From: a virus
Lineage: Duplodnaviria; Caudoviricetes
Virus record (IMG/VR): IMGVR_UViG_3300037483_000370
Span: 3,690 to 67,689 of that record
Length of the DNA: 64,000 nt
Strand: one strand, 5' to 3'
In this document: in pieces, positions 27,552-27,993 of the stretch
Position numbering within the stretch: the stretch's first letter is position 1
Layout of the letters: every line of letters begins with the position of its first letter
Translations under genes and position numbers: made by a program
Notes under the pieces: generated by a model
The model's input: only the letters and a program-made list of their open reading frames with translations
Database searches by the model: none
What the model was told of the DNA's origin: nothing

Positions 27552-27993
27552 GAACTCGTTTATTTATTTTGATAATTACTTTCATAATGGCTCGCTCTTT
27601 AACTTTGGTTTCCTCAATTCTCTTGGCTCGCTCTTTGGTCCTGGCTTTCTCGATAATTCTGGCTCGCTCCCCATGAATGGTTTGCTCTGAAATTTTGGCT
27701 CGCTCTCAAGTGTTGGTTTCATCCTAATTTTTGGCCCGCTCAAACGAAATGGTTTCCTCCCAAACATTGGCCCGCTCTTTCCGAGTGGTTTTCTTCCCAC
27801 TTTTGGCTCGCTCACGCAGCATGGTTGACTTTATTGTACTGACCCGCTCTTAAAGTATGGTTTCCTATATTGTGCTGGCCCGCTCTATTTAACTGGTTTA
27901 CTATTCACACGCGGCACGCTCGATAATTTTGGTTGCCTCTTTGGTATTGGCTCGCTCAATTATACTGGTTTTCTCCGCCATTTTGGCCCACTC
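27552..27993 (-). repeat. TIGR-type array: 36-bp units of edge repeat GAGCG(A/G)GCCA, 9-nt spacer A, loop repeat AG(G/A)AAACCA, and 8(+G)-nt spacer B
   Basis: Edge repeats start on the + strand at 27588, 27624, 27660 ... 27984 (exact 36-bp period, 12 copies); 11 loop repeats; degenerate extra unit to about 27552; spacers all differ; internal stop codons interrupt the two repeat-like minus-strand frames. Confidence 0.92.

Follow-up and report, generated by a model that had tools for sequence, protein, structure and literature searches.

Why would an array of guide RNAs in a phage carry what appears to be the same pair of spacers twice, with the two spacer slots exchanged, and what would two such guides recognize? 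TIGR-Tas systems were described in 2025, and the papers of 2025 and 2026 both name the targets of these systems and the acquisition of their spacers as open questions (PMC12045711; 10.64898/2026.09.09.750476). Natural targets have mostly been impossible to determine, given that a site of 18 bp gives many false matches (PMC12045711; 10.64898/2026.09.09.750476). A mirrored pair offers an internal control that requires no database, in that the same site is specified by two units of a single array. Neither a natural mirrored pair nor a natural target was reported in the TIGR-Tas literature that we searched. Here we analyze units 2 and 10 of an array located in a 64,000-nucleotide stretch of DNA (referred to as the window throughout) from a 67.7-kb IMG/VR virus record, which represents a tailed phage with genes for a portal protein, TerL and a tail sheath. 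A first-pass annotation of the window had proposed that these two units point to one shared target.

A TIGR-TasA cassette in a tailed phage

The array has an exact 36-nt period over 11 units, each of which combines 9-nt edge and loop repeats with two 9-nt spacers, the dual-repeat architecture of TIGR arrays (Table 1). The consensus is AGCGAGCCA for the edge repeat and AGGAAACCA for the loop repeat; the two differ at only three of nine positions, and a nearly identical repeat pair is present in ~50 related loci. A comparison with Rfam matched the array to no family. Its first edge repeat begins at the final base of the tasA stop codon, and both the orientation of tasA and the GA-containing repeats on the minus strand indicate that minus is probably the array strand. 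The operon holding tasA and the array is preceded by a promoter-like site.

Table 1. Features of the TIGR-TasA locus and of units 2 and 10 (positions in the window)
Feature	Position	Strand	Remarks
tasA	27992..28771	(-)	259 aa; coiled coil and Nop domain, no nuclease domain
TIGR dual-repeat array	27588..27992	(-)	11 units of 36 nt; directly 3′ of tasA
PD-(D/E)XK exonuclease gene	26403..27506	(-)	367 aa; phrog_298; directly downstream of the array, same strand
Promoter-like site	29815..29843	(-)	TTGACA, 17 nt, TACATT; promoter-like by consensus match only
Unit 2 with both edge repeats	27912..27956	(-)	edge 27956-27948, closing edge 27920-27912
Unit 2 spacer A, ATACCAAAG	27947-27939	(-)	
Unit 2 loop repeat	27938-27930	(-)	
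Unit 2 spacer B, AAATTATCG	27929-27921	(-)	
Unit 10 with both edge repeats	27624..27668	(-)	edge 27668-27660, closing edge 27632-27624
Unit 10 spacer A, GAATTATCG	27659-27651	(-)	
Unit 10 loop repeat, AGAAAGCCA	27642-27650		edge-type G at position 6, hybrid look
Unit 10 spacer B, GGACCAAAG	27641-27633	(-)	

The ninth letter of the spacers is nearly constant, with G at this position of spacer B in all 11 units. In 94-96% of the 570 units from 50 loci, both spacers have a purine (G or A) as their ninth letter; which one is array-specific, and only eight letters per spacer vary freely. If the ninth letter pairs with the target, as it does in the unit 2 match described below, targets would need a central purine-pyrimidine step. 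Such a step would amount to an internal motif in a system that has been described as motif-free.

The protein encoded beside the array carries a Nop-type tigRNA-binding domain, as expected for a TIGR-Tas system. In sequence searches it matched residues 145-313 of the solved TasR (9mty; E 2.6e-14) and aligned with residues 90-299 of TasH (E 2.9e-13). With respect to TasR, the matched region starts at residue 145 (with a weak stretch from residue 120), past the N-terminal part of that protein. Pfam assigned the protein to Transposase_20 and detected no nuclease domain in it. Its AlphaFold model (pLDDT 93) consists of helices and one hairpin with no extra domain, and the ten best PDB folds for this model are all TasH or TasR (TM 0.64-0.74), followed by the IS621 recombinase. 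A protein of 259 aa has no room for either a RuvC or an HNH domain, and neither was found; we therefore identify it as TasA, the nuclease-less subtype. A total of 599 homologues were retrieved. The 367-aa ORF downstream of the array was considered as the Tas protein and rejected, since it encodes a PD-(D/E)XK exonuclease without similarity to Tas proteins; a relative has PF12705. We treat it as a neighbor of the cassette rather than as an established member of the TIGR system.

Searches of cultured phage records returned no match to this locus. Four of 401 Spirochaetota genomes (G386, G380, G287, and G361) encode relatives of the phage TerL (window 5782-7218) at 58-66% identity, and this TerL is 36% identical to that of Leptospira phage LE1. 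TasA is absent from all four of these genomes, so the TIGR-TasA cassette looks like an accessory insert in the phage lineage. Relatives of TasA occur mostly in Spirochaetota MAGs. By these comparisons the carrier looks like a spirochaete phage, at distances that leave the question of its host unsettled.

Units 2 and 10 carry the same spacer pair in exchanged slots

Read on the minus strand, units 2 and 10 have the coordinates and letters that the first-pass annotation had noted, and the exchange it described between them is real. Spacer A of unit 2 matches spacer B of unit 10 at seven of nine positions, and spacer B of unit 2 matches spacer A of unit 10 at eight of nine, with all mismatches at spacer position 1 or 2. 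Measured against the mirrored unit 2, unit 10 differs at position 1 of A and at positions 1-2 of B. When each unit is joined as spacer A followed by the reverse complement of spacer B, hereafter A+rc(B), the two have a common 15-bp core in opposite orientation.

To score swaps we used the eight variable positions of each spacer, leaving out the nearly constant ninth, so that the maximum is 16. Units 2 and 10 reached 13; the runner-up among swapped pairs of this array reached 8. Scores of at least 13 were obtained in 8 of 20,000 shuffles of letters within spacers and in 29 of 20,000 shuffles of columns, and in one of 112,217 pairs from different arrays. For this array, the expectation for 13 variable positions matching without interruption is ~2e-5, and three randomly placed mismatches would all fall within the four outermost variable positions with a probability of ~0.007. 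These figures are to be read in light of the fact that the pair was chosen after inspection and that ~0.04 such pairs are expected among the 4,284 within-locus pairs surveyed. The case against chance is good, but the numbers alone are not overwhelming. The one cross-array swapped pair with 13/16 (the L202 unit at 2548 and the L224 unit at 768) has central mismatches too and probably reflects chance.

The core had not been seen by eye in the window, and it is indeed absent from both the window and the whole virus record. Self-targeting was rejected as an explanation of the pair, given that the window contains no site with three or fewer mismatches to unit 2 or unit 10. Two conclusions previously drawn from the swap went too far. 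It had been taken as independent support for the A+rc(B) geometry, but rc(B)+A gives the same duplex; it had also been taken as support for 9-nt spacers, but 8-nt spacers fit equally well because the ninth letters are constant G. Support for both the spacer length and the geometry comes from the 18/18 protospacer described below, not from the swap.

Exchanged spacers would address the same duplex

A TIGR target is 18 bp long and consists of two adjacent half-sites; spacer A base-pairs with one strand in one of them, spacer B with the opposite strand in the other, and the complex is a pseudo-two-fold dimer (PMC12045711). The two spacers are thus the 5′ halves of the two strands of the target, so that the naming of A and B is arbitrary and a swap represents the same duplex turned around. 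Guides with A and B swapped cut the same target in vitro, and reverse-complemented guides were inactive (PMC12045711, fig. S7E text). Plain inversion of DNA yields reverse-complemented spacers and therefore cannot explain the swap. By this reasoning, a swap would be precisely the rearrangement that preserves function. The tandem-spacer rule is established for TasR, and we infer that it applies to the TasA studied here. The earlier proposal that units 2 and 10 address one duplex accordingly finds its backing in the published symmetry rule and in the in vitro activity of swapped guides (PMC12045711).

Findings from related proteins bear on how the differences between the two units might be tolerated and on what binding might do. 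A single mismatch at position 1 was accommodated in TasH (PMC13421893), and TasR was impaired by double mismatches at the edge (PMC12045711). RNA-guided repression has been demonstrated for TasA and for dead TasR (bioRxiv 10.64898/2026.09.09.750476).

Related arrays duplicate units in register

Relatives of TasA were gathered from both viral contigs and genomes, and 570 units in 50 loci were parsed. The idea that swapped pairs would recur in other arrays was not borne out, as none with at least 12/16 was found in the other loci of this survey. Two apparent swapped pairs, in L213 and L236, were discarded as parser artefacts: their edge and loop repeats are almost identical, which led the parser to frames offset by 18 nt. 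The mirrored pair is thus rare, an exception among these arrays and not a trait common to them. By comparison, same-order duplicates with at least 13/16 numbered 12 and were spread over nine loci, some of them as blocks of consecutive units.

Sharing of single spacers within arrays followed the same pattern across the 50 loci: sharing in the same slot was 7 to 8 times the between-array background, whereas sharing between the A and B slots was at background (0.58 vs 0.68 per 1000). The enrichment of same-slot sharing, together with A-B sharing at background, indicates that arrays duplicate units in register and that exchange between slots is not routine. These data speak against half-unit recombination as a general process, one of the two origins suggested for the pair at the outset. 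We found no close relatives of this array among viral contigs, and one 87-kb contig with a 75%-identical TasA exists.

Other features of these arrays deserve mention in their own right. In L208, L237, and L229, two or three successive units recur as a block in the same order, and in L208 the duplicated block is shared between arrays upstream and downstream of tas. These cases show that segmental duplication is a mode of array growth. In the array of the window, the neighboring units 4 and 5 (27831-27875) have spacer A in common at seven of nine positions (GCACAATAT vs GTACAATAA) and unrelated B spacers. Taken with the same-slot excess, this suggests in-register recombination or targets with a common half-site.

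A candidate target upstream of terL

A search for unit 2 in other viruses turned up a candidate target. Read as A+rc(B), unit 2 matches at 18/18 positions in nine viral contigs, at one homologous gene site with diverged flanks. The site lies in an ORF of 85-90 aa that abuts or overlaps terL, directly upstream of it, and encodes the peptide WLNYRFGMP, which is invariant in the 75 family members examined. These contigs belong to a family of phages with ~31-kb genomes, of which IMG/VR contains at least 271 members; one of the genomes has terminal repeats. Unit 2 shows no mismatch to 8 of the 75 members, at most one to 33, and at most two to 51. The site sits on a peak of nucleotide conservation and ranks as second best of 20 GC-centered sites. 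In addition, pairing with the target extends to the two central positions, whose letters do not vary within the array (1/16 by chance). The ORF is placed like a TerS gene, a label derived only from its size and its position upstream of terL; searches for a recognised TerS family gave phrog_38011, whose function is unknown, as the sole match and nothing in Pfam above the cut-off.

Unit 10 matches the same site at 15/18 positions and never has fewer than three mismatches to the 75 members. The suggestion that the two units represent two alleles of a target therefore holds only in part: the 5′ G of its spacer A corresponds to an existing synonymous Leu-codon allele, but the 5′ GG of its spacer B occurs in no family member and faces a Met codon that is invariant in all 75 members examined. 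This adjacent double 5′ mismatch in B counts against the use of the family site by unit 10. The exact unit 10 18-mer is absent from viral contigs. A 17-mer scan for unit 10 in metagenome contigs gave at least 80 matches; the 26 exact 18-mers among the matches listed were all located in unrelated bacterial genes, such as those for aminotransferases, and were rejected as targets.

How much weight an 18-mer match can bear was estimated from the background. The 15-mer core has 101 hits in IMG/VR, ~79 of them outside the family in ~55 contexts. These outside hits imply an expectation of ~1 chance hit per 18-mer, so that an 18-mer match taken alone is weak evidence. None of the ~85 background contexts from three scans included nine diverged contigs.

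The TerL of the target family is 45-52% identical to its closest cultured relatives, which infect Flavobacteriia, and was not found in the 401 Spirochaetota genomes. The 15-mer core was found once in these 401 genomes, a count equal to that of the reversed-pattern control. On these similarities the hosts of the carrier and of the target family do not obviously agree, and the matter is unsettled at these distances.

Guides of other arrays match the same phage family

We compared 559 units of other arrays with the family loci. At no more than one mismatch, the A+rc(B) geometry gave matches for four units, and five control geometries gave 0, 1, 1, 1, and 0. A unit of L211 (1528-1563) matches the portal gene of the family (L032:4656-6038) at 17/18 positions, with 13 family loci within two mismatches, and a unit of L194 (1877-1912) matches the family terL (L075) at 17/18. 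Both matches fail only at spacer position 1, the outermost. Three different TasA phages thus appear to point at the packaging module of one family, which strengthens the case, although the family loci compared cover mainly this module and the location of the matches is partly a matter of ascertainment.

Five complete genomes of the target family and 80 of its loci were compared with the other units of the window, with no result beyond the control geometries. A partial match of unit 1 in G001 was rejected because it is not homologous to the other matches of this unit, and four matches to a 16-mer of unit 6 were attributed to chance. Separately from this family, the inner 16 nt of unit 1 (27957-27983) in the A+rc(B) geometry match the codons for a conserved GGYNCRH motif in genes for minor capsid protein 2/Mu-F-like head morphogenesis proteins. 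Such matches occur in ~18 diverged viral contigs (loci among L343-L397). The best of them are 17/18 with the mismatch outermost (L386, L389, L393, and L362), none is 18/18, and ~37 further hits are background-like.

Discussion

We consider it probable that units 2 and 10 are two mirror guides for one 18-bp duplex, whose natural target is the WLNYRFGMP site and which was selected twice. tigRNA 2 and tigRNA 10 would guide the nuclease-less TasA dimer to the same duplex in opposite orientations. The natural target would be the conserved site in the small ORF upstream of terL of rival ~31-kb phages, met in a host that both phages would share. Unit 10 would serve as a further guide, mismatched only at the 5′ ends of its spacers, that either predates unit 2 or is directed at a variant. 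Given that TasA has no nuclease, the effect may be a roadblock on transcription or replication of the packaging operon of the rival phage, which would fit the repressor activity shown for TasA and dead TasR. The phage would thereby hold redundant mirror guides against its competitors. Spacer A reportedly engages faster than spacer B in two systems; one may speculate that a mirrored pair attacks its site from both sides and gains robustness in this way. As to the origin of the pair, selection for the same conserved site twice is most likely, rather than routine rearrangement of the array. A G at the ninth letter demands a central GC, of which the conserved stretch offers two registers, and finding the same register twice is therefore unsurprising.

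The alternative to which we pay most attention, while regarding it as rather unlikely, keeps the shared target but takes the IMG/VR family for a look-alike, the true target being an unsampled phage, a plasmid or a site in the carrier's own, probably spirochaete, host. About one chance 18-mer match is expected in the viral collection and many occur in metagenomes, the apparent hosts of the carrier and the target family differ, and unit 10 lacks an exact match in any plausible target, with none in viral contigs and those in metagenomes lying in unrelated genes. A look-alike would nevertheless have to reproduce what no background context of ~85 did, namely at least nine diverged members, and to do so at a conservation peak in an essential module for which two other TasA arrays have matches, to portal and terL, in the correct geometry only. 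A target in the spirochaete host is also at odds with the core being no more frequent in the 401 Spirochaetota genomes than the reversed-pattern control. Coincidental likeness between two AT-rich spacer pairs that have no common target has, in our judgment, a very slim chance of being correct. The spacers are short, the pair was picked after inspection, and both the ~0.04 pairs expected among the 4,284 and the comparable 13/16 pair between the unrelated arrays L202 and L224 must be conceded to it, but shuffles reach the score in only 8 to 29 of 20,000 trials, three of the four outermost variable positions hold all the mismatches, and the expectation for a contiguous core is minute.

Two further readings accept the pair and differ in how it arose. 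In one, both units descend from a single ancestral unit by two half-unit (18-nt) shifts or by recombination between edge and loop repeats, followed by drift at tolerated positions. We think this distinctly improbable. It draws on the similarity of edge and loop repeats, on the edge-type G at loop position 6 that unit 10 alone has among 11 loops, on the placement of all three differences at tolerated 5′ positions, and on the 12 same-order duplicates by which arrays of this clade are seen to duplicate units. Yet A-B sharing at background beside a strong same-slot excess, the lack of a second swapped pair in the survey, and the neighbors of units 2 and 10, which have nothing in common, all tell against it, and simple inversion would have yielded inactive reverse-complemented spacers instead of swapped ones (PMC12045711). 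The other reading is guide-directed re-acquisition, which we hold to be very unlikely: a TasA-tigRNA complex bound at a mismatch-tolerated site would set the 18-bp register for copying a new unit. The copy could enter in either orientation, since each spacer is the 5′ half of one strand, and unit 2, which is perfect and near tasA, would be an updated copy primed by the older unit 10. The identical register, the mismatches at tolerated positions and the opposite orientation are only compatible with re-acquisition; if true, it would offer a first indication of the way in which the guides of TIGR arrays are renewed.

Under the reading we prefer, two mirror guides against the packaging-gene site of a rival phage, the locus would have several consequences. 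The site on which both units agree is also matched exactly in an abundant phage family, where it falls on the conservation peak of a packaging gene, and pair and match together provide a candidate natural target, which is a rarity for TIGR-Tas systems. If true, this would give a nuclease-less DNA-binding protein a concrete natural role, of phage against phage. It would also confirm, in a natural setting, the A+rc(B) geometry and the tolerance to mismatches at the 5′ edge, and would supply a defined pair of guides and alleles for testing binding, repression and acquisition.

Comparison with known systems

The locus resembles known TIGR-TasA systems (PMC12045711; 10.64898/2026.09.09.750476) in that a nuclease-less Nop-domain Tas protein stands beside a 36-nt edge/loop array with two short spacers per unit, in being phage-borne, and in having a candidate target that obeys the tandem-spacer rule. 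Unlike those systems, this array has a natural mirror-image pair and candidate natural targets. A parallel to the pair itself is the set of engineered swapped-spacer tigRNAs for TaTasR, in which A and B were exchanged and the same duplex was addressed (PMC12045711). Those swaps were designed guides for a nuclease in vitro, whereas the swap reported here is natural, stands beside the unswapped form in a nuclease-less system, and involves two copies that differ at spacer 5′ ends.

Phage and plasmid CRISPR arrays offer a likeness of function, as redundant guides of a mobile element against conserved genes of its competitors. The present locus differs from them in having no Cas1/Cas2 and no PAM and in reading 18 bp across both strands. 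Moreover, two CRISPR spacers taken from the two strands of a single site do not make equivalent guides, as those of units 2 and 10 would. Finally, box C/D sRNAs and IS110 bridge RNAs share with this system a Nop-type RNA-binding fold and two short specificity segments, in keeping with the place of IS621 as the next best fold for the TasA model. These RNAs guide RNA methylation or recombination as single units, and their two segments have different partners and are not interchangeable.
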